A stretch of 23,220 nt of DNA from a virus (lineage: Duplodnaviria > Heunggongvirae > Uroviricota > Caudoviricetes), in the IMG/VR virus record IMGVR_UViG_2582581315_000004, positions 89,802-113,021 of that record; one strand, given 5' to 3'. The translations under genes and the position numbers were made by a program. Below the pieces are notes generated by a model. The model had not been told where the DNA came from and did no database searches. It saw only the letters and a list, made by a program, of their open reading frames with translations. Shown here piece after piece: positions 3,655 to 21,145 of this stretch (position 1 is the first letter of the stretch; each line of letters starts with the position of its first letter).

Positions 3655-6348
3655 ATGAACTTCAAAAAACTGCTGCTTGCCACGACTGCGTTGTTTGCGG
3701 CGTCGACTTCGGCTGCCCATGCGGAACCAGTTACGATTGCCCTTTTCGGCGCGGCGTTCGCTGCGACAACGGCCGGCTCACTGGTATCGATTGGTTTCGG
3801 TCTTGCGATCACTTATGGCCTTTCGCTTCTCCAAAAGGCTTCATCGAGTAGCTCCGCATCTCAGGGCGGCACGCAAGTCGACGTCCAGATGGGTGATGAC
3901 AAACCCATCAGCTTCATCGCCGGCAAATTCGCCACGGCCGGTAAGCGCAAATATAGCGGCACCTGGGGTGACGGGGGGAAGACGCCGAACGCCTTCTTTG
4001 TCGACGTCATCGAAATTGGGAGCATTCCGAATAACGCCGGATCGGCGGGGATCACCAGTGTCTGGATCGATGATCAGTTGTGCGGTGTCCGTTGGGATGA
4101 ACCTCACCCTGACGGCCGCGGTTATCCGGTGGTCGAATATCGCGAAAGTGACGGGAAGGATCATCTTTGGCTCAAATTCCTTGATGGCAGGCAGACTTCG
4201 GTCGACCCATATTTGACCAGCAAGTTCGGCACGAACGCTGATCGCCCCTGGACAGGCGACATGGTCGGCTTTGGGTGCCAGGTCGTGATTTTGACCGCGC
4301 GCTACGACACCGATCTTTTCAGCGGCATCCCGCAGGGGCTCTACGAACCTCACTCGGTTCCGCTTTACGATGTCCGGAAGGACTCTTCCAACGGCGGCAG
4401 CGGTACTCATCGGTGGACCGATCCGGCGAGCTGGGAGCCTACGCAAAATCCAGCCGTGATAATGTACAACATCATTCGCGGCATCTATTACAATGGCGAG
4501 TGGGTTTACGGCGGCCAGAACCTCGCAGCGTTCCGCCTTCCTCCATCGAGTTGGATGGCTGCCGCCAACGCCTGCGATGCGCTTGTAACATTGGCCGACG
4601 GCTCTCAGGAGCCGGCATATCGGGCCGGCTACGAGTTCCATGGCGATGAGAAACCCGCCGACGCCGTCGAGAAGTTGCGCGCAGCCTGCAATGGGCGCCT
4701 TGCCGAAGTCGGAGGCATCTTCAAGCTTTTGGTCGGTGCACCGGGCGGCGCCGTCTATGGGTTCACCGATCAGGACATCATCGTCACTGAATCGCAGAGT
4801 CTCGCTCCATTCCCGACGCTCGACGACACCGTCAATGCGATCGAGGCAACCTATCCTGAGCCGGCCGAGAAATGGGCATCTAAAGACGCTCCTGGTCGAT
4901 ATTCGGATGTCCTTGAGGCTGAGGATGGGGGCCGCCGCCTGCCGGCCAGCGTGAGCTTCGAGGCGGCGCCGTTTGGCAATCAGGTGCAGCGCCTGATGAC
5001 CGCGATGGTGCAGGAAGAGCGCCGCTTCCGCATTCATCAGTTCTATCTGCCGCCGGACGCCTATGCGCTTGAGCCGAACGATGTCGTCACGTGGAGCTCA
5101 GACCAAAATGGGTACACGAACAAGAAATTTCTTGTCACGAATATTACTGGCCAGCGCACCTTCAACCAGCTCGTCTCGCTAAAGGAAATCGATCCTTCAG
5201 ACTACGACTGGAACAGCAGCATGCAGCTGCCCACGTCGATCGGCTGGATCGGGCCAATTACAGCGCCGTCGCAGCCGTTATATGGCTGGACGGTAGAGCC
5301 GGCCGCAATCAACAGTAGCGACGGATCGCCATGGCGGCCATCAATCAAGGTCAGCTGCGCTCCTGACCAGGACGACGTGAGCAATGTGTGGGTGCAAGTG
5401 CGCCTCGCAGCGACAGGCGATATCGTCTTCGACAGCGACGCGACGCGATATGAATCGCCTTATAGCTGGATCATCAATGCCAGCTTCAAATCGAACACGA
5501 ACTATCAGGCCCGCGGCAAGTTCATACCGATCAGTAGCCGTTCCACCGACTGGTCGGAATGGCTACCCGTAACTACGCCGACGGTCTTGATCGGTGCGGA
5601 CGAGATCTATCTCGACGGCGTTGTCAGTGAGCTGCAGAATTTCGTCTCTGACGCAACCGTCTGGATCCGCGACGGCACTCGACAGTCGCTCATGGACGCA
5701 CAGCGCCTCGCTCGGCTTGGTCAAGACCAAGACATGGGCAACTTCACGGACCGCCAGCAGATGCGCCGGGAGCTTGCCAGTGTGACGGCGCAGATTACTG
5801 CCAGTTACATCGAGACCATTACCGTCGCAACAGGCCCAAACTCAGCCATAGTCCAGCGTCTGGAAGAACTTTCAGCGACTATTCCCAACTTGGCAACCGT
5901 TGCTGCGCTCAATCTGTTGTCGGCACATGTCGACACAGTTGAAGGTGAAGTCCAGGCAAATGCCGACGCCATCACGTCGCTGACCGCTCAAGTTGGCGAT
6001 GTGAGCGCAAGTGCAAATTTCAGGATGAGCGTCTATGCCGCCCCTTCTGGATATAGCTCACGCATCGGCATGGAAGCGCGAGGGGGTAGTGCTGGGGCCT
6101 ATCGGTCAGCGTCTTTGTTTATTGACGTCCCAAGCAGCACGAGTGACCCCACTCGCGTATCGATCAATGCTGACCAGTTCTCCATTACAAATGGTGGCAG
6201 CGAGGGGCAGCCGTTTATCTTTCAGAGCGGTGTGCTGACCTTGAATGCGGCGAATATCGGCACGGTAACGGCCGGTCTGATCAATGGTGGCGCCGGCTCA
6301 AAGATGGTTATCGACATCACAAACGGCGTCCTCACGGTCTCGGACTGA
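3655..6348 (+). CDS. Tail tip hub / host-specificity protein (gpJ-like)
   Basis: 897 aa. It has NPA.IMYNIIRG, W.AAANACD and LRAACNGRL..VGG motifs, a late coiled-coil segment and a C-terminal INADQF..F beta-rich region typical of J-like proteins. Confidence 0.85.
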   Translation: MNFKKLLLATTALFAASTSAAHAEPVTIALFGAAFAATTAGSLVSIGFGLAITYGLSLLQKASSSSSASQGGTQVDVQMGDDKPISFIAGKFATAGKRKYSGTWGDGGKTPNAFFVDVIEIGSIPNNAGSAGITSVWIDDQLCGVRWDEPHPDGRGYPVVEYRESDGKDHLWLKFLDGRQTSVDPYLTSKFGTNADRPWTGDMVGFGCQVVILTARYDTDLFSGIPQGLYEPHSVPLYDVRKDSSNGGSGTHRWTDPASWEPTQNPAVIMYNIIRGIYYNGEWVYGGQNLAAFRLPPSSWMAAANACDALVTLADGSQEPAYRAGYEFHGDEKPADAVEKLRAACNGRLAEVGGIFKLLVGAPGGAVYGFTDQDIIVTESQSLAPFPTLDDTVNAIEATYPEPAEKWASKDAPGRYSDVLEAEDGGRRLPASVSFEAAPFGNQVQRLMTAMVQEERRFRIHQFYLPPDAYALEPNDVVTWSSDQNGYTNKKFLVTNITGQRTFNQLVSLKEIDPSDYDWNSSMQLPTSIGWIGPITAPSQPLYGWTVEPAAINSSDGSPWRPSIKVSCAPDQDDVSNVWVQVRLAATGDIVFDSDATRYESPYSWIINASFKSNTNYQARGKFIPISSRSTDWSEWLPVTTPTVLIGADEIYLDGVVSELQNFVSDATVWIRDGTRQSLMDAQRLARLGQDQDMGNFTDRQQMRRELASVTAQITASYIETITVATGPNSAIVQRLEELSATIPNLATVAALNLLSAHVDTVEGEVQANADAITSLTAQVGDVSASANFRMSVYAAPSGYSSRIGMEARGGSAGAYRSASLFIDVPSSTSDPTRVSINADQFSITNGGSEGQPFIFQSGVLTLNAANIGTVTAGLINGGAGSKMVIDITNGVLTVSD

Positions 6349-13224: not shown

Positions 13225-13480
13225 TCGTGCCAATTCCTGAAATCGCGCCCCCCGGCGACTTTGGATATTCGATAGTTGGCTCAACCTCTGGGTACCGAGG
13301 CCTAGCCCAGGCACCAAACCATGTATTCTCGTACAGGTAGGCCTTGAGAAGGTTAACCGATCTGCATCGGTTGATATCCTCTACCATTGACTGAATCTGG
13401 TGTGAAGTAGTCGCCATCAGTTGGCGACCGATACAATGCCCGTGTGTCGGGTCTGCAACTCCAAGGCATAGGAACCTTCC

Positions 13481-13789
13481 ATGAACCACGCGAAACTTTT
13501 CGCGGCGGTGCGCGCGCGCGTGCTCAATCGCTTGAAGCTGGCCTTCGATCGACTGGAGCATATCCCCGACGCCAAAGCCGTGCTCTTCCATGCATGGAGC
13601 GTCCGGCTTTGGATAGCCGCCTCCGCCATCATTCTCCTCGAGCCACTCTTCGAGTTGCTCGTCGATCTCTCTGACAGTTGGAACATTTACACGCGCGCTT
13701 GCCTGCGAGCTCTCGCCGGCATTTTCGGCCTGCTGGGCATCTGGGCGCGTGTCGTCAAACAAAAGGAACTGCAAGATGCCGATAAATAA
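13481..13789 (+). CDS. Putative holin-like membrane protein
   Basis: 102 aa with a HAWSVRLW motif, two hydrophobic segments and a basic C-tail. It overlaps the lysozyme start. The exact start is uncertain. Confidence 0.65.
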   Translation: MNHAKLFAAVRARVLNRLKLAFDRLEHIPDAKAVLFHAWSVRLWIAASAIILLEPLFELLVDLSDSWNIYTRACLRALAGIFGLLGIWARVVKQKELQDADK

Positions 13790-15900: not shown

Positions 15901-15929
15901 GCCCCTCCGCTCCGGCGGAGGGGCTTTTT
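15901..15929 (+). terminator. Rho-independent terminator ending the late/lysis operon
   Basis: 8-bp stem ccctccgc-tccg-gcggaggg followed by cTTTTT, 25 bp after the last + strand gene. Confidence 0.82.
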
Positions 15930-15954: not shown

Positions 15955-16140
15955 CTAGGCGGGCTTGTTGCCGTACGGCTGGCGATAGTCCAGCCATCTG
16001 TGTTCATAGCAAAACCAACGCGTCTCGCCCTTGCCGACGGCGTAGCCCCATCCGCCCCACGCCTTGCAACCAGGTTGCTCGCAATAGTGCTCGAAGAGAA
16101 TTGATGGAAGCCGTTTAGCTGTCTCTGTGTGGTCGCTCAT
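15955..16140 (-). CDS. Small putative Zn-binding protein (C-x4-C ... C-x2-H)
   Basis: 61 aa containing HYCEQPGC..WG.WG...WFCYEH. Its ATG overlaps the upstream TGA (4 bp). Confidence 0.75.
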   Translation of the reverse strand: MSDHTETAKRLPSILFEHYCEQPGCKAWGGWGYAVGKGETRWFCYEHRWLDYRQPYGNKPA

Positions 16141-16856
16141 TCCGCCAGTCCATTGAGTCGTTTCAGTGCATCATAGTAATCCTCGACGTCGCGCGCAGCT
16201 TGCCGTGCGATGTCTGCGCTCCCACTGGAGGGGCTATTGAGGATCCGGTTCATGGTCACCAAGCAGGTCCAGTGCCATCGCTCCTGCAGGCCCGCTGAAT
16301 AGTCTTGCCAAATTCTCCCAAACTTGATGCCGCCTTCATATCCGAAAAAATCAGCCATATGCGGCCCATTGGCCCGCCGCCACTTGTAGCGAGGCACCAA
16401 CTCTCCGAGGCGATGGAGATAAGATAGCGCGCAGTCCGCCGCGCTTTCCGTATTCCCGCCGGTGACCACTGCCAGCTTGGGCGGCGGCCGACGAGAGATC
16501 TCGAATGCGGTCAGCAGCGCGTCTGCCGTCTGTTGGCCTATGACTTCCAGCGTCCGGTGCGCCAAATCGAAGTTCCTTGTGCAAAGCGAGAAGGCGTCTT
16601 CATCCGGAACTCCGTTAAGGACACCTGCGATCGGCGGCACCAACGAGTCCGGCCCGACCTTTTCTCCGTTCCGATGAAACTCAAGGGATTGGGAAAGATG
16701 AGCGCCAATCTCCCGCGCTATGGCAGGGAACCGTTCCCTGTCTCGGCGCTTGCCTACCTGATAGCCGCTAAAGCGCCGAAGCTGTCCTCGGCGCATGCAG
16801 CGGAAGCAGATATAAACGGACAGGCGAATTCGATCGGCAATTGTTTCCTCGGTCAT
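16137..16856 (-). CDS. Hypothetical protein with an N-terminal CxxC and a C-terminal Trp-rich domain
   Basis: 239-aa ORF co-oriented in the operon. CFRC lies near the N-terminus; the C-terminal region reads YKWRR...DFFG.EG...GRI...W.W...ARQAAR.VE.YYD. Confidence 0.7.
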   Translation of the reverse strand: MTEETIADRIRLSVYICFRCMRRGQLRRFSGYQVGKRRDRERFPAIAREIGAHLSQSLEFHRNGEKVGPDSLVPPIAGVLNGVPDEDAFSLCTRNFDLAHRTLEVIGQQTADALLTAFEISRRPPPKLAVVTGGNTESAADCALSYLHRLGELVPRYKWRRANGPHMADFFGYEGGIKFGRIWQDYSAGLQERWHWTCLVTMNRILNSPSSGSADIARQAARDVEDYYDALKRLNGLAE

Positions 16857-16913
16857 TTGGCACCATCAGTTTGTTATTGTTTTTGAAGACGGCCGCCACG
16901 TCTTGCCTCTCGT

Positions 16914-17624
16914 CTATTGCGCTCTGATCAGTTCATCGTCGGGCAGGGGGCGCTGAAGGAGCTTCGCCGTCTCCCATGGCTCCGTTAGCCAGGTCTCGAT
17001 CTCCTCCTCGGTTCTCAGAATGACTGGCATCGCTTTCTCGTGCACGGCCTCGACAACGCTATTGGCCTCAGTGGTGAGAAATCCAAACAGATCGGCTGTC
17101 TCGAGTCCGTTCTTGATCGTCCGAACGCGTGTCCATTGGGGAACCCAGCAGCCGGCGAAAAAGGCTACCTGTCGGCCATCGGCGAATGCAAACCAGGCGT
17201 TGGGAACTCGGCCACCCTCGACCTTGCCTCCGTGATCTGGCTCCGCAAAGCGAGTGAAAGGGACGACGCAACGGTTCTCGACGCCAAACCATTGTTTCCA
17301 GTGAGCCAGGTCGGTGTTTCGGATGTTGGTCAGACCGCGGTCCGGTTCGTTCTTTAGCAACTCGGCGAAATTGACCCCTTCCCCTTTGGCCTTCTTCTTG
17401 TCAGCTCTCTTTTTCGCAGCCTCGCGCTGGATGTGAGGAAAGCCCGGCATCGCCCACTGCACCTTGACCAACTCGCGGCCCGCCGGCGTATTGCGGACGA
17501 TCGGCGCCATATAGTTTGGATAGAGATCGAGCTCGGGCTCAAGGTTGCCGACACTATCGATCAACGCCTTGGTGATCTGCCGGATGGCCTCCTGGTTGGT
17601 CGAGATGTTGTAAAGGTTGCACAT
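16914..17624 (-). CDS. SOS response-associated peptidase (SRAP/HMCES/YedK family)
   Basis: N-terminal M-C(NLY) catalytic Cys2, RCVVPF..FAEP (Glu), FAG.W, FLTTEAN and VH.KAMPVIL (His). Confidence 0.93.
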   Translation of the reverse strand: MCNLYNISTNQEAIRQITKALIDSVGNLEPELDLYPNYMAPIVRNTPAGRELVKVQWAMPGFPHIQREAAKKRADKKKAKGEGVNFAELLKNEPDRGLTNIRNTDLAHWKQWFGVENRCVVPFTRFAEPDHGGKVEGGRVPNAWFAFADGRQVAFFAGCWVPQWTRVRTIKNGLETADLFGFLTTEANSVVEAVHEKAMPVILRTEEEIETWLTEPWETAKLLQRPLPDDELIRAQ

Positions 17625-17630
17625 GCCTCA

Positions 17631-17645
17631 GTACCTTTTTTGCTC
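17631..17645 (-). promoter_or_regulatory. Possible degenerate LexA box at the SRAP ribosome-binding region
   Basis: Minus strand reads GAGC-N7-GTAC, one mismatch from the GAAC-N7-GTAC variant of the alphaproteobacterial SOS box, 7-21 bp upstream of the SRAP ATG. Confidence 0.35.
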
Positions 17646-17666
17646 GCTCCTAAGATGCGGCTTAAA

Positions 17667-18176
17667 CTAACGCTTTTCGTTCCTGAAAATGAAGATGGCT
17701 CGTCCGCGCTTCTCGCAGCGCCGGCACTTTAGCAGCTTCTCGAGGTCATCGGTCTTTGCCTGCGCTCCGTACTTTCGAAGGAGCGCGCGCGTATCGACAT
17801 AATACATCCAGCCACACCGGCATTTGGCGAAGACGATCTCCCACTCCAGGATCCCGCTCAACGTCCTTTCCCCAAGCGGCAGGTAGCCGCGGGGGATCTT
17901 GACCTCAGGTGTCCATTCAATCTTCTGGAATTCCGGCCGTGCCGGCGCCATCTGGCACCGATCCCAGCCCACCTTCGCGAAATTTGGGCACCCAACCGCC
18001 TTTGAGACGATGTCGGGAAGGCTCGGGACGTTGACGTCGCCCAGCACCTTCAACATGGAATCGACGTCATAGTTCTTTTGCTTGCGGCACCTCGAGCACC
18101 AAAAGCAGGCAATTTCACCCTTGTGATGGGATAGCCACTGGATGCGCTCATGCCATTTGGGAAACTCATCGGTCAT
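17667..18176 (-). CDS. Hypothetical protein with two tandem putative Zn-ribbon domains
   Basis: 169 aa: CSRC...GC-x10-C followed by CRC...CRRC. Each half has a Y.VD..(L)L...G segment. Confidence 0.78.
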   Translation of the reverse strand: MTDEFPKWHERIQWLSHHKGEIACFWCSRCRKQKNYDVDSMLKVLGDVNVPSLPDIVSKAVGCPNFAKVGWDRCQMAPARPEFQKIEWTPEVKIPRGYLPLGERTLSGILEWEIVFAKCRCGWMYYVDTRALLRKYGAQAKTDDLEKLLKCRRCEKRGRAIFIFRNEKR

Positions 18177-18711
18177 CTTTTTGGGTCATGTACCAAACCC
18201 AGGTAGGATGCGTTTCGATCCCATCGACGATGAGCTGAAGCGTATTTTCCAAGCTTTCGCTGATATCGTACGAGTTTGGCCCAAGCACCAACCCTGAGAT
18301 CATGATGAGCGTGCAGATCTTTTCTTCGGCCTCATCTAAGGCAAATTGCAGGTCCGCAAAATATGCAGACGGCAACGCGGTATAGACATGCGCGCGCTTG
18401 AAAATGACGTCTGATCGACCCTCCACTTCCTTGGCGAGAATGTACGCGACCTCTTTCGTCGGCAGGTCGAATGGCCCCTCCCACCAAAAAGTAAAAGGTG
18501 GCTCATCGTCCTCTTCTTCATGATCGTAATCATAGGCGCCGATCTGCTCGAGTGTCCCGCGAGCATCCCTGATCATTCTCAGGAATGCGTCGGACTTGCC
18601 GATCGCTCCATCTCCTCGACGCTCATCAAAAACATCTTGGCTCACGAAAGCGACAAGCTCCTTGAGCACCTTCGCATCATGACGCGTGATTGTGTATTCG
18701 CTCGGTTGCAT
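18166..18711 (-). CDS. Acidic hypothetical protein, first gene of the accessory operon
   Basis: 181 aa with GGAG 9 nt upstream of the ATG; overlaps the next gene by 11 bp. Confidence 0.75.
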   Translation of the reverse strand: MQPSEYTITRHDAKVLKELVAFVSQDVFDERRGDGAIGKSDAFLRMIRDARGTLEQIGAYDYDHEEEDDEPPFTFWWEGPFDLPTKEVAYILAKEVEGRSDVIFKRAHVYTALPSAYFADLQFALDEAEEKICTLIMISGLVLGPNSYDISESLENTLQLIVDGIETHPTWVWYMTQKDDR

Positions 18712-18791
18712 GGCGCACGTCTCCAGTCCGCCGATCGACGGCGGTCCTCTTCATCCAATTTTCGGTAAACTATGGCCGGGAAGCCTCGTTT

Positions 18792-18806
18792 GTTCTCAAA
18801 ATGTTC
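18792..18806. promoter_or_regulatory. Alphaproteobacterial LexA (SOS) box GTTC-N7-GTTC
   Basis: GTTCtcaaaatGTTC is an exact match, 81 bp upstream of the operon's first ATG and overlapping the predicted -10. Confidence 0.82.
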
Positions 18807-18827
18807 TCGTTTTGAGAAAGAGTCAAG
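18799..18827 (-). promoter_or_regulatory. Putative sigma70 promoter of the accessory operon
   Basis: Minus strand CTTGAC (18827-18822, the rhizobial -35 consensus), N17, then a weak -10 ACATTT (18804-18799). Confidence 0.6.
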
Positions 18828-20022
18828 AGGCAGCTATGGGCATCGAATTTCTGGAAGGGCGCCGTCTTTGCCCGCTGTTCTTTCTGAGCTTTGCCGAAGA
18901 ATGCTCGATCGGTGGAGCTTCGTCTTTGATTTTCTTCAGCCAATGCCAATCGGCGTACTTGTCCCCGATTTGACGAATGTGGGTGTAGCGTTTCAGGCTC
19001 GTCCAGGAACGATGGCCAGAGACCGTGGCGGCGCGGGGAATACTCCAACCAAGCTCAAAGAGGCGCGAGATGCCGTCATGGCGCAAGTCGTGAAAATGAA
19101 GATCTTCGATCCCCAGTAGTTTGCAGTTGGTGGTGAAGTTTGATGAGATGGTGCCTGGGTTATAGGGGAATATTTCAGGAGCAATCCTCGGCATTGAATC
19201 GATAACTAGGAGAGCTTCGGGGGGGAGGGTGCACCGTACGTCGTTCCCGACCTTTTGTCCTGGATGCTTCATATCCCGAACCAAAATTTCCGAATTTTCG
19301 CGATCCAGATCGTCCCACCTGATCGTGGTGATCTCCTCCTGCCTGCGGGTGGAGAAGATCCCGAACAAAATTATCTTGTGCATCGGCGACGCCTCGAGCG
19401 TGCGGGTGCTTCGCTCGCGGAAGAAGGTAAGGAGGATCTCGAGCTCCGGCAATGTCGGGCGCCTGTCTCGCTCAGCGCTCGTGCTTGTGATCCCTAAGCG
19501 CCTTGTGACTTTCGCGGCGTCTTTGAAGGCTTGCTCATCGAGTTGGTATCCCCACATCGGTCTGGCGATCGCAAAGACCGACCCGAGGTGCGACATATAG
19601 TTGCCGACCGTTTGAGGTTGGCGCCCAACACGCTCCTCGTCGTCATGCTGCCATCCCGCAAAGAGATCCTTGGCAAAGCTGGTTATGTCGGCGCTGGTGA
19701 TGGCTGCGCAGCGCATAGAGCCAAGCTCATGCTTCTTGATCACGTTCAACACCTGCGCCTTCGTCTTGCCGAAGTCCTTCACCGACTCCTTTGTGTATTG
19801 GTCGATCGCTTCCGCGAGTGTCACGTCGGGTTGCTGCAATCGGTCCAAGGCGCCTGGCTCTTCGAGGGCAGCCTCTCTCTTCTTCAGCCACGATTTTGCC
19901 ACCGGCTTACGGTCGAAAGTTTGAGCCTCGGTATGAACGACCTTACCATCTCGCTTTATTCTGATTTGCGCTGTATAAGATTTTGTCCCGTTCTTTCGGG
20001 TTCTCTCTGATATGGTGCCCAT
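18823..20022 (-). CDS. int: Tyrosine integrase, dusA-associated type
   Basis: Catalytic motifs STRRQEE (R), HFHDLRH (H-x-x-R), SGHRSW (H) and LKRYTH (Y); N-terminal arm-binding-like YTAQIRIK. Start reassigned to ATG 20022 (399 aa). Divergent from dusA. Confidence 0.95.
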   Translation of the reverse strand: MGTISERTRKNGTKSYTAQIRIKRDGKVVHTEAQTFDRKPVAKSWLKKREAALEEPGALDRLQQPDVTLAEAIDQYTKESVKDFGKTKAQVLNVIKKHELGSMRCAAITSADITSFAKDLFAGWQHDDEERVGRQPQTVGNYMSHLGSVFAIARPMWGYQLDEQAFKDAAKVTRRLGITSTSAERDRRPTLPELEILLTFFRERSTRTLEASPMHKIILFGIFSTRRQEEITTIRWDDLDRENSEILVRDMKHPGQKVGNDVRCTLPPEALLVIDSMPRIAPEIFPYNPGTISSNFTTNCKLLGIEDLHFHDLRHDGISRLFELGWSIPRAATVSGHRSWTSLKRYTHIRQIGDKYADWHWLKKIKDEAPPIEHSSAKLRKNSGQRRRPSRNSMPIAAS

Positions 20023-20024
20023 CT

Positions 20025-20063
20025 GAGTGCTACAAAACTCCGCTCGAGTGCTACGCCGTAGCA
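20025..20063. repeat. GAGTGCTAC direct repeat (x2, 21-bp period) plus an inverted GTAGCA; putative integrase arm-type sites
   Basis: GAGTGCTAC at 20025 and 20046; TGCTAC-gcc-GTAGCA palindrome at 20049-20063. Confidence 0.65.
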
Positions 20064-20066
20064 ACA

Positions 20067-20095
20067 GGCATATTGGAATGGGCGCTAACGGTCAA
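20067..20095 (-). promoter_or_regulatory. Putative sigma70 promoter of the integrase
   Basis: Minus strand TTGACC (20095-20090), N17, TATGCC (20072-20067), 45 bp upstream of the ATG. Confidence 0.55.
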
Positions 20096-20166
20096 ATTCT
20101 TACGAGAATGTGACGATATAAATGGACTGGGTTCGTGGGTAATTCGTTGTATTCTCGCAAGAATTT
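20094..20166. repeat. 16-bp inverted repeat (15/16 match); each arm is an ATTCT-N4-AGAAT palindrome
   Basis: aaattcttacgagaat (20094-20109) versus attctcgcaagaattt (20151-20166). Confidence 0.8.
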
Positions 20167-21145
20167 ATTTGCCGTTGCACCCATGATCGACTGGACTGAC
20201 CGGCATTGCAGGTATCTGCACCGGCAGATCAGCCGCCATGCGCTGCTCTATACCGAGATGGTGGTGGCCGACGCGATCATTCACGGCCCGCGTGACCGTT
20301 TGCTCGGCCATGATGCGACCGAGCATCCAGTCGTCCTGCAGCTCGGCGGCTCCGATCCGGCCAAGCTTTCCGAGGCGCTGCGGATCGCGGAGCCTTATGG
20401 CTATGACGAGATCAATCTCAATGTCGGCTGCCCGTCCGACCGTGTGCAGTCCGGCACCTTCGGCGCCTGCCTGATGCTGACGCCGGAGACGGTGGCTGCC
20501 TGCATCGCCGCTATGAAGGCGATATCGAAAGCGCCAGTGACAGTGAAATGCCGCATTGGCGTCGATGAGCAGGAGCCGGAAGAGGCGCTGCCGGAGCTGA
20601 TGACGCGCGTGCTCGATGCTGGTGCTGACGCGATCTGGATTCATGCGCGCAAGGCCTGGCTGAAGGGCTTGTCGCCGAAAGAGAACCGCGAGATCCCGCC
20701 GCTGGATTACGATATCGTCTATCGCATGAAACAGCGTTGGCCTGAGGTCTTCATCGGCATCAATGGCGGCATCCAGACGCTGGACCAGGCCGAGGCGCAT
20801 CTCGCCCATGTCGACGGTGTCATGCTCGGCCGCGCCGCCTATCAGAATGCCGCCATTCTGGCAGACGTCGACCACCGTTTCTTTGGCGAACCGGCCGCCG
20901 AGGCTGATTGGAACGACCTGCGTGACCGGATGATGGCCTATGCCGAACGTCATATCGCCGATGGCGGCCGCTTGCATCATGTTGCCCGCCACATGGTCGG
21001 CCTGTTTGCCGGCTTACCGGGCTCGCGCCGCTATCGCCAGATCCTTTCCACCGACGCCAACAAGCCTGGCGCGGGGCCAGAGGTGATCGCGGCGGCTTTC
21101 GCTGCGGTGGATTTTGCGGGTGAGGGTGAGCGGGCGAGTGCTTGA
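20135..21145 (+). CDS. dusA: tRNA-dihydrouridine(20/20a) synthase A
   Basis: FAVAPMIDWTDRHCR, LQLGGSDP, EINLNVGCPS, VTVKCRIG, NGGI and GVMLGRAAY motifs. The start codon is uncertain (GTG 20135 or TTG 20147). Confidence 0.96.
   Translation: MGNSLYSRKNLFAVAPMIDWTDRHCRYLHRQISRHALLYTEMVVADAIIHGPRDRLLGHDATEHPVVLQLGGSDPAKLSEALRIAEPYGYDEINLNVGCPSDRVQSGTFGACLMLTPETVAACIAAMKAISKAPVTVKCRIGVDEQEPEEALPELMTRVLDAGADAIWIHARKAWLKGLSPKENREIPPLDYDIVYRMKQRWPEVFIGINGGIQTLDQAEAHLAHVDGVMLGRAAYQNAAILADVDHRFFGEPAAEADWNDLRDRMMAYAERHIADGGRLHHVARHMVGLFAGLPGSRRYRQILSTDANKPGAGPEVIAAAFAAVDFAGEGERASA

Follow-up and report, generated by a model that had tools for sequence, protein, structure and literature searches.

A putative SOS-inducible cassette of SRAP and small zinc-motif genes in a temperate Rhizobium phage inserted at dusA

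Why would a temperate phage carry a gene for an SOS-response-associated peptidase (SRAP) in a row with four small genes, behind what looks like an operator for the LexA repressor of its host, and do any of these small genes serve the SRAP protein? The question is raised by a locus in the IMG/VR virus record IMGVR_UViG_2582581315_000004, a provirus record of 113 kb whose final 23 kb (positions 89,802 to 113,021; 23,220 nucleotides, hereafter the window) were analysed in this study. Coordinates are those of the window unless the record is named, and handles of the form L001 designate individual loci. The chemistry of SRAP proteins, including HMCES, is well understood; how they are delivered to lesions and how their cross-links are removed is still unclear. 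We know of no partner protein of any bacterial SRAP. According to our analysis, the probability is roughly 60% that the five genes are DNA-damage-inducible cargo (a 'moron') of a temperate Rhizobium phage at dusA and that their core shields abasic sites.

The cassette consists of five co-oriented minus-strand open reading frames (ORFs) between 18711 and 15955, encoding in that order proteins of 181, 169, 236, 239 and 61 amino acids (aa), which are referred to as A181, B169, SRAP236, D239 and E61. Two of the four junctions are overlaps (A181/B169, -11 nt; D239/E61, -4 nt), while B169/SRAP236 and SRAP236/D239 are spaced by +42 and +57 nt, respectively. An earlier note on this DNA, made from the letters alone, had proposed five co-oriented genes with two overlapping junctions, and all of them are present; the operon organisation that it postulated is supported in silico, and the five genes would be transcribed together. 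As judged by comparison with homologous loci, the cassette is built from a conserved core (a Zn-ribbon or ZnR gene, SRAP and a C3H gene), a variable leader slot and D239, which is inserted here. The features are as follows, in the direction of reading.

18821..18826, minus strand: -35-like hexamer TTGACT, overlapping the TGA stop of the integrase gene (18825-18823), 14 nt upstream of the box
18792..18806, minus strand: alphaproteobacterial LexA operator (SOS box) GAACATTTTGAGAAC, a perfect GAAC-N7-GAAC that spans the presumed -10
18166..18711, minus strand: A181, ORF for an acidic leader gene product (isoelectric point, pI, 4.4) in the variable slot
17667..18176, minus strand: B169, basic protein with two tandem four-Cys Zn-ribbon-like modules and invariant Cys, member of the ZnR family; conserved gene partner upstream of SRAP
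16914..17624, minus strand: SRAP236, SRAP of the YedK/HMCES family with Cys2 (PF02586, phrog_1599, 2aeg)
16137..16856, minus strand: D239, two-domain protein, lineage-restricted insertion between SRAP and E61 (11 known proteins)
15955..16140, minus strand: E61, small C3H zinc-knuckle protein with an EsV-1-7-like motif, its start overlapping the D239 stop by 4 nt; conserved gene partner downstream of SRAP

The identity of the central gene is clear. SRAP236 matches Pfam PF02586 over residues 1-231 (1.6e-17; 64.2 bits, cut-off 27.1) and phrog_1599 (5e-32), and its residues 1-233 can be aligned to the solved Agrobacterium SRAP PDB 2aeg (E 4.6e-77). Its N-terminus reads MCNLY, so that the protein starts with Met-Cys, and its Cys2 is paired with Cys2 in the alignment to 2aeg. 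In the same alignment, the segments TNIRN, FAEPD and HEKAMPV, where the conserved active-site Asn, Glu and His of the family may lie, are the same or nearly the same in both proteins. Within the family, the protein belongs to the subgroup of Agrobacterium AGR_pAT_140 (PDB 2aeg), which has a Lys-rich insert. For YedK and HMCES, a reversible cross-link (thiazolidine) of Cys2 to abasic sites in single-stranded DNA has been established (reviewed in PMC13705206). The SOS mutagenesis genes umuDC and imuABC, stated by the earlier note to be missing here, are indeed not found among the ORFs examined.

Whether the host controls these genes depends on the site in front of them. The box GAACATTTTGAGAAC starts 17 nt past the integrase stop, and 80 nt separate its end from the start of A181. 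The LexA motif of Caulobacter is tabulated as the direct repeat GTTCN7GTTC (da Rocha 2008, in the table of PMC9578287), and GAAC-N7-GAAC is its reverse complement; the perfect SOS box claimed upstream of the cassette is therefore present at 18806..18792. Homologous cassettes were collected from prophages of Agrobacterium rhizogenes, Rhizobium lusitanum and Rhizobium sp. by way of their D239 homologues, and from phage Yong-M2-251, Sinorhizobium phage phi2LM21 and Agrobacterium phage Rivra by DNA or protein similarity. A perfect box was present in all seven phage and prophage cassettes (7/7), either directly 5' of the gene run that contains SRAP or in the adjoining divergent intergenic region. 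Identical or nearly identical boxes occupy this same place in A. rhizogenes (L002/L003), R. lusitanum (L004, the same as L011), Rhizobium sp. (L005), Yong-M2-251 (L001), phi2LM21 (L006) and Rivra (L008). The proteins of the cassettes sharing the box are 31% to 73% identical.

When the upstream regions are aligned, conservation is confined to the -35 hexamer and to the box with the GA/A on its sides, whereas the flanking DNA does not align. The resulting consensus upstream of SRAP cassettes, the window included, is TTGACTC-N14/15-GAGAACA(T/A)NNNN(A/G)GAAC. TTGAC(T) stands 14-16 nt 5' of the box in six of the seven phage and prophage cassettes and in several chromosomal ones, the exception among the seven being Yong-M2-251 with TTGTAT. 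CATAAT, the AT-rich spacer of several copies, would be the -10, and TTGACT may serve the cassette as its promoter -35. A promoter under LexA repression would be expected to show just such a conserved -35 combined with a box, and LexA is predicted to bind here. Host LexA control, a further proposal of the earlier note, is in this way supported in silico, since promoter and operator are kept together while the surrounding DNA diverges.

The motif GAAC-N7-GAAC occurs six times in the 113-kb record, compared with about 3.4 occurrences expected by chance, and only the cassette box combines the AT-rich spacer and the intergenic position of the conserved boxes. The second match in the window, GAACCTTCCATGAAC at 13472-13486, probably a product of chance, lacks a -35 partner and has a spacer richer in GC; long ORFs overlap it on either strand. 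Inspection by eye also revealed an AT-rich inverted repeat, TCTCAAAA...TTTTGAGA (18793-18817, minus strand), which overlaps the LexA box. The A. rhizogenes copy has a similar repeat, CAAAATG...CATTTTG, and the copies whose spacer reads CATAAT have none; the repeat probably arises incidentally from the sequence of the spacer.

In order to see how often the other genes accompany SRAP, about 400 genomes of the Rhizobiales, the order of the R. lusitanum genome, were sampled, and the counts hold for the sampled genomes of this order. An SRAP homologue at E<=1e-20 was present in 76 of 401 genomes. Among the 30 best SRAP loci, a perfect box preceded SRAP or its co-directional run of genes by no more than 500 nt at 14, and a ZnR gene was encoded no farther than 1.5 kb from SRAP at seven. 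The order box-ZnR-ZnR-SRAP was encountered at one sampled locus (L068) and the order box-ZnR-SRAP-E61-like, with 4-nt overlaps, at another (L060).

Searching from the side of B169 gave a matching picture. A family match was found in 19 of 400 genomes, and 20 loci were expanded to about 12 kb. At 12 of these 20 chromosomal loci a perfect box lies no more than about 430 nt upstream of the B169-family gene, which is an approximately 30-fold enrichment over the background rate in the same loci (0.021 per scanned window); as the loci are phylogenetically related, the nominal P of ~8e-16 is descriptive and not a true probability. SRAP is encoded within 6 kb of the B169-family gene at seven of these loci, often divergently from the same box. 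The ZnR gene stands directly upstream of SRAP and co-directional with it in the window, Rivra (L008), phi2LM21 (L006), R. lusitanum (L011), L060, L068 and L073, and is divergent from SRAP at L041, L042, L048 and L053. The neighbours of the ZnR-SRAP pair at three loci are ordinary chromosomal genes (GGDEF/EAL, insertion sequence transposase, P-type ATPase, ABC permease, alginate lyase), which argues that the pair is not phage-specific machinery.

B169 itself is a basic protein (pI 9.3) whose eight Cys and C-terminal Arg are invariant across 29 diverse homologues. A close-family search retrieved Rhizobium-type proteins only, and a contig scan with the close B169 alignment gave two loci; a profile search among 1.84 billion cluster representatives found 92 relatives. 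The family comes in a double-module form (~150-175 aa) and a single-module form (~80-90 aa). The AlphaFold2 (AF2) model of B169, with a mean confidence (pLDDT) of 67 and values of 74-91 in the C-terminal module, consists of two repeats in which Cys-knuckle beta-hairpin strands surround short helices. No informative relative of solved structure was found by Foldseek against the PDB or by a wide fold search (best Z 4.3), and structural echoes were limited to weak Zn-ribbon matches such as MCM (Z 2.2-2.9). Matches in the AlphaFold DB clusters were small unnamed Zn proteins only.

E61 is the second recurrent neighbour. Its ligands C20-x4-C25-x18-C44-x2-H47 are invariant in 12 sequences, and it matches phrog_29777 (6e-18). 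Against PF19114, the EsV-1-7 cysteine-rich motif, it scores 15.2 bits (E 0.019), below the cut-off of 25. One homologue (P0129) has a precomputed PF19114 match, and in the Atlas E61 reaches a feature score of 0.96 to clusters in which 20-54% of the members carry PF19114. The middle spacing is 18 in E61 versus 16 in the motif of algal viruses. These matches place E61 at the margin of the EsV-1-7 cysteine-rich motif family. An E61-like match was found in 14 of 401 genomes. At five of the eight best places SRAP lies within 1.5 kb of the E61-like gene, which follows SRAP on its downstream side wherever the strand was readable, and two more of the eight adjoin a ZnR gene. SRAP and the E61-like gene overlap by 4 nt in L060 and in Rivra. 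In the latter (PV764937.1, L008), the overlapping ORF at 5001-5165 encodes a C3H protein of 54 aa and is unannotated in the deposited record.

D239 and A181 behave differently and are, by their distribution, narrow, lineage-restricted additions. The D239 family comprises 11 proteins among 5.8 billion, the named ones all from Rhizobium or Agrobacterium, and no relatives were found in a scan of viral contigs. Its C-terminal domain (155-236) matches phrog_12188 and protein p56 of phage phi3LM21, and it also exists as a stand-alone protein, for example p56, which is encoded beside an ATP-dependent ligase. The AF2 model has a confident helical N-terminal domain (pLDDT 86-96) and a weaker alpha/beta C-terminal domain. 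Neither Foldseek against the PDB nor a wide fold search gave an informative structural relative (best Z 5.3), and the Atlas holds unnamed clusters only, split into stand-alone N- and C-terminal families. The CxxC of D239 is unique to the window sequence, and one Cys (C198) is invariant among 10 homologues. Since its CxxC is not conserved, D239 is probably not a zinc protein, and the label of a CxxC/Trp-rich Zn protein that it had been given is to be dropped. Zn-binding proteins around SRAP had been proposed in the earlier note; this stands for B169 and E61, which have invariant ligands, and thus for two of the four partners, not three. The same two are recurrently linked to SRAP in the neighbourhood survey that had been called for, whereas A181 and D239 are lineage-restricted.

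A181 has no match in Pfam, PHROG, NCBIfam (E<=0.1) or PADLOC and nothing usable in the Atlas. It is known at three related loci, and its homologues are confined to R. lusitanum (L004/L011, 73%) and A. rhizogenes (L002, 31-33%). The box-proximal slot is occupied by different genes in different phages (A181, a 79-aa gene, p63/p62, a 104-aa gene or a 123-aa gene), while the ZnR-SRAP-E61 core persists. More generally, none of A181, B169, D239 and E61 has a family in Pfam, NCBIfam or PADLOC, the match of E61 to PF19114 being below threshold, and none of the five proteins matches a catalogued defence protein in PADLOC.

Small genes in or next to the leader region recur mosaically between unrelated phages (L004 3838-4077; L008 3365-3876; L006 4105-4735; L001 6140-6379; L005 4319-4555). 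The 79-aa gene of R. lusitanum is 59% identical to Rivra g33, and p63 of phi2LM21 is 53% identical to Rivra g32. The 80-aa gene of Yong-M2-251, which had been considered as a D239 C-terminal domain, was rejected as such after BLASTP placed it in a separate small family together with phi2LM21 p64 and a 78-aa gene of Rhizobium sp. (L005).

The surroundings of the cassette are those of a temperate phage, with the following features outside the SOS unit.

15901..15924, plus strand: GC-rich hairpin, its 10-bp stem containing 9 GC pairs, with a T-run behind it on the plus strand, at the point of convergence with the lysis and tail genes
18823..20064, minus strand: tyrosine integrase (Pfam Phage_integrase, phrog_1), co-oriented with the cassette and directly upstream of it; context
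20135-21145, divergent from the integrase: dusA, a host gene for tRNA-dihydrouridine synthase (Pfam Dus, 2e-77)

Tail, tail-fibre and endolysin genes occupy the plus strand up to ~15.9 kb, and the five minus-strand genes converge on them. The cassette slot is an accessory region between the lysis genes and the integrase and attachment end of the phage. The hairpin at 15901..15924 is a terminator for the plus-strand genes. The transcript of the cassette probably ends there as well, although the minus strand has no T-run. The prophage is inserted at the 5' end of dusA, with the integrase gene divergent from dusA (18823-21145). Integrases that target dusA are a known class, and the layout of the prophage fits them. 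No other copy of the dusA 5' end of at least 14 nt was present in the record, and the left prophage end (attL) was not located.

Elsewhere in the record the phage encodes its own sliding clamp, a DNA polymerase III beta subunit of 446 aa with three DnaN domains (record 42622-43962, minus strand), whose gene adjoins that of a second HTH_3 protein. Clamp-binding motifs of the QL[SD]LF type are absent, by eye, from all five cassette C-termini. Ku and ATP-dependent ligase genes were not detected in the 113-kb record by family search and local tblastn with the relatives' proteins. The record family search with PF02586 missed the SRAP of the window despite its Pfam match of 1.6e-17, and the negatives of this search (S24, Ku, ligase) are weak.

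We posit the following course of events. In the lysogen, host LexA on GAAC-N7-GAAC would cover the -10 of a TTGACT-type promoter and keep the five genes silent. Upon DNA damage, LexA cleavage stimulated by RecA would release them as one transcript. Cys2 of SRAP would then cross-link reversibly to abasic sites in single-stranded DNA, which would be shielded from cleavage for as long as replication gaps persist. B169 and E61 may be DNA-binding or recruiting partners of SRAP, or they may control the release of the cross-link. The benefit might go to the damaged lysogen, to the phage genome as it replicates once induced, or to both. The functional core most likely consists of B169, SRAP and E61. 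The tight or overlapping ZnR-SRAP and SRAP-E61 junctions in several lineages suggest co-production, and from this we infer that B169 and E61 are most likely partners of SRAP; they are good candidates for its cofactors. As the core also occurs on chromosomes, it would act on general DNA damage rather than on a phage-specific target.

Several observations weigh against this view. By itself, the cassette box is within chance for the window, where GAAC-N7-GAAC was counted twice versus 0.68 expected and 15 of 100 shuffles reached two; the weight of the box therefore comes from its conservation at homologous loci and not from this count. No terminator is predicted between the integrase gene and the cassette, and LexA-independent read-through from the integrase would thus be possible. 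On chromosomes, ZnR and SRAP are often divergent or convergent and not co-transcribed, an arrangement that fits co-regulation and is weaker support for a complex. The role of B169 as a DNA-binding partner is suggested by its charge, its Zn motifs and gene coupling, and both B169 and D239 are without informative structural relatives. The insignificant motif count and the missing terminator would also suit a box that is chance or vestigial rather than a working LexA operator, with the five genes constitutive or co-transcribed with the integrase. We consider this highly improbable, because seven cassettes, whose flanks do not align, have retained the box and its -35 partner in one and the same position and because the box is enriched upstream of the chromosomal homologues as given above.

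Phages with non-cleavable repressors commonly use LexA-controlled antirepressors, and such genes vary with the immunity type. The cassette, or at least A181, could be the SOS sensor of the prophage, in which a LexA-repressed antirepressor inactivates a non-cleavable CI-like repressor while SRAP and its partners are passengers. The immunity region (record 22615-24250, ~85 kb from the cassette) encodes a 160-aa HTH_3 repressor, with ~75 residues after its helix-turn-helix (HTH), too few for a Peptidase_S24 domain, and no match to one, and a divergent 81-aa Cro-like HTH partner; given the insensitivity of the record family search, the absence of an S24 domain is read mainly from the length of the repressor. 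It fits an antirepressor that the record has no well-formed LexA site other than the cassette box and that the box-proximal genes change between phages around a persistent core, as immunity-specific antirepressors would. The R. lusitanum relative keeps both A181 (73%) and CI (70%), but this co-occurrence reflects merely two closely related prophages. A phage-borne SRAP as damage sensor for a lysis switch was put forward as a speculation by Aravind et al. (PMC3765255). A181, however, resembles neither antirepressors (Tum, Ant, KilAC/Bro) nor any other family in Pfam, PHROG or NCBIfam, and the core cassette is common behind the same box at non-prophage chromosomal sites, where it needs no phage repressor as its target. 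We regard an antirepressor role as unlikely; it is compatible with a repair function of the other four genes.

A counter-defence role, in which SRAP and its partners shield abasic sites made in phage DNA by antiviral glycosylases (Brig1-like) or base-excising defences, appears improbable. Glycosylases that act against phages by making abasic sites in their DNA are known, but deletion of yedK left Brig1 immunity in E. coli unchanged (PMC11078745). The cassette does lie in the accessory region of temperate phages; the same LexA-boxed cassette is, however, chromosomal in many Rhizobiales. Repression by LexA fits a damage response better, as counter-defence genes are normally on at entry, although an incoming genome meets LexA too. 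No match to a PADLOC or anti-defence family was found.

DNA-damage-inducible cargo that shields abasic sites thus seems to us the best description, and it has some practical consequences. A small set of proteins beside SRAP, under the same LexA switch, on chromosomes and in several unrelated temperate phages, provides concrete partner candidates, which are easily cloned, and the hosts Agrobacterium, Sinorhizobium and Rhizobium are genetically tractable. For phage biology, the locus would be an alphaproteobacterial example of prophage cargo wired to host LexA, and it raises the question whether, in phages with a repressor incapable of self-cleavage, the variable leader gene ties the cassette to induction. 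A bolder proposal, which we put forward as doubtful, is that the Zn-ribbon and C3H proteins are the first dedicated cofactors of a bacterial SRAP, and that temperate phages have joined them to an immunity-specific leader gene, here A181, through which a single LexA operator would both protect replicating phage DNA and report damage to the lysis-lysogeny switch.

How does the cassette compare with known systems? To our knowledge, E. coli YedK acts alone and has no dedicated Zn-protein partners. SRAP236 shares with YedK and human HMCES the Pfam family and the N-terminal Cys2, and the same cross-link chemistry would be expected by analogy. Unlike them, it is encoded in a LexA-boxed operon and belongs to the AGR_pAT_140 subgroup with the Lys-rich insert.

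LexA-controlled accessory and antirepressor operons are known from coliphage 186 (tum) and from the Gifsy prophages. As in 186 tum and the dinI-antirepressor operons of Gifsy-1/2/3, the promoter that bears the host LexA operator is remote from the immunity region, and no self-cleavage domain is evident in the prophage repressor; by analogy, the small operon would combine a gene of the damage response with small genes specific to the phage. The cassette differs in having no homology to Tum, DinI or known antirepressors, in its operator of the alphaproteobacterial direct-repeat type and in its conserved part, which is a repair-type core that is also chromosomal.

Among phages of the Rhizobiales, phi2LM21 likewise carries its SRAP gene (p58) in the right arm beyond the lysis genes, there flanked by ATP-dependent ligases. 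The same LexA box and promoter are found upstream of p63-p62-p61(E61-like)-p60-p59(ZnR-like)-p58. Unlike in the window, the E61-like gene precedes SRAP, and A181 and D239 are absent. The published description of this 'extra genes' region annotates only SRAP and the ligases and mentions neither the LexA box nor the Zn proteins (Decewicz et al., 2017, PMC5537653). Two phages labelled as infecting Synechococcus, Yong-M2-251 (OM868082.1, L001 5955-8207) and PP438429.1, share ~68% DNA identity with the cassette. Their SRAPs are 61-71% identical to those of Rhizobium and Agrobacterium prophages, and an alphaproteobacterial-type GAAC-N7-GAAC separates the SRAP operon from two genes with weak likeness to ZnR. 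The Synechococcus host label, or the origin of the module, may deserve a look.

The closest known system was described by comparative genomics in 2013. Aravind, Anand and Iyer reported ZnR1-ZnR2-SRAP neighbourhoods beside Ku, ATP-dependent ligase and DinB in alphaproteobacteria, where ZnR1 and ZnR2 are two uncharacterised Zn-chelating ribbon-like domains; the operons, ZnR1->ZnR2->SRAP(->DinB) and the divergent <-ZnR2||SRAP->, are assigned to Bradyrhizobium, Afipia, Rhodopseudomonas and Nitrobacter in that article (PMC3765255). The earlier note had taken the module to be undescribed, and this has to be corrected: in light of the article the cassette is not a new kind of system. Likeness extends to the ZnR gene directly upstream of or divergent from SRAP and to the order box-ZnR-ZnR-SRAP at L068. 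It also extends to the class called 'Ku-ATP-dependent ligase and ZnR associated' SRAP, since relatives of the cassette in R. lusitanum, Rhizobium sp., phi2LM21 and phi3LM21 have two Ku genes or ligases beside it; in R. lusitanum, two Ku genes and small ORFs lie between the integrase gene and the box. B169 is likened to ZnR1/ZnR2 by its Cys pattern, its predicted Zn ribbon and its adjacency to SRAP, and not by direct sequence alignment. A LexA operator is unreported in the 2013 article, and the window is without Ku, ligase and DinB. The cassette is a five-gene, prophage-borne variant of this published, never bench-tested ZnR-SRAP neighbourhood, set apart by its place as prophage cargo, by one double-module ZnR instead of two genes, by the C3H EsV-1-7-like protein downstream of SRAP, and by A181 and D239.

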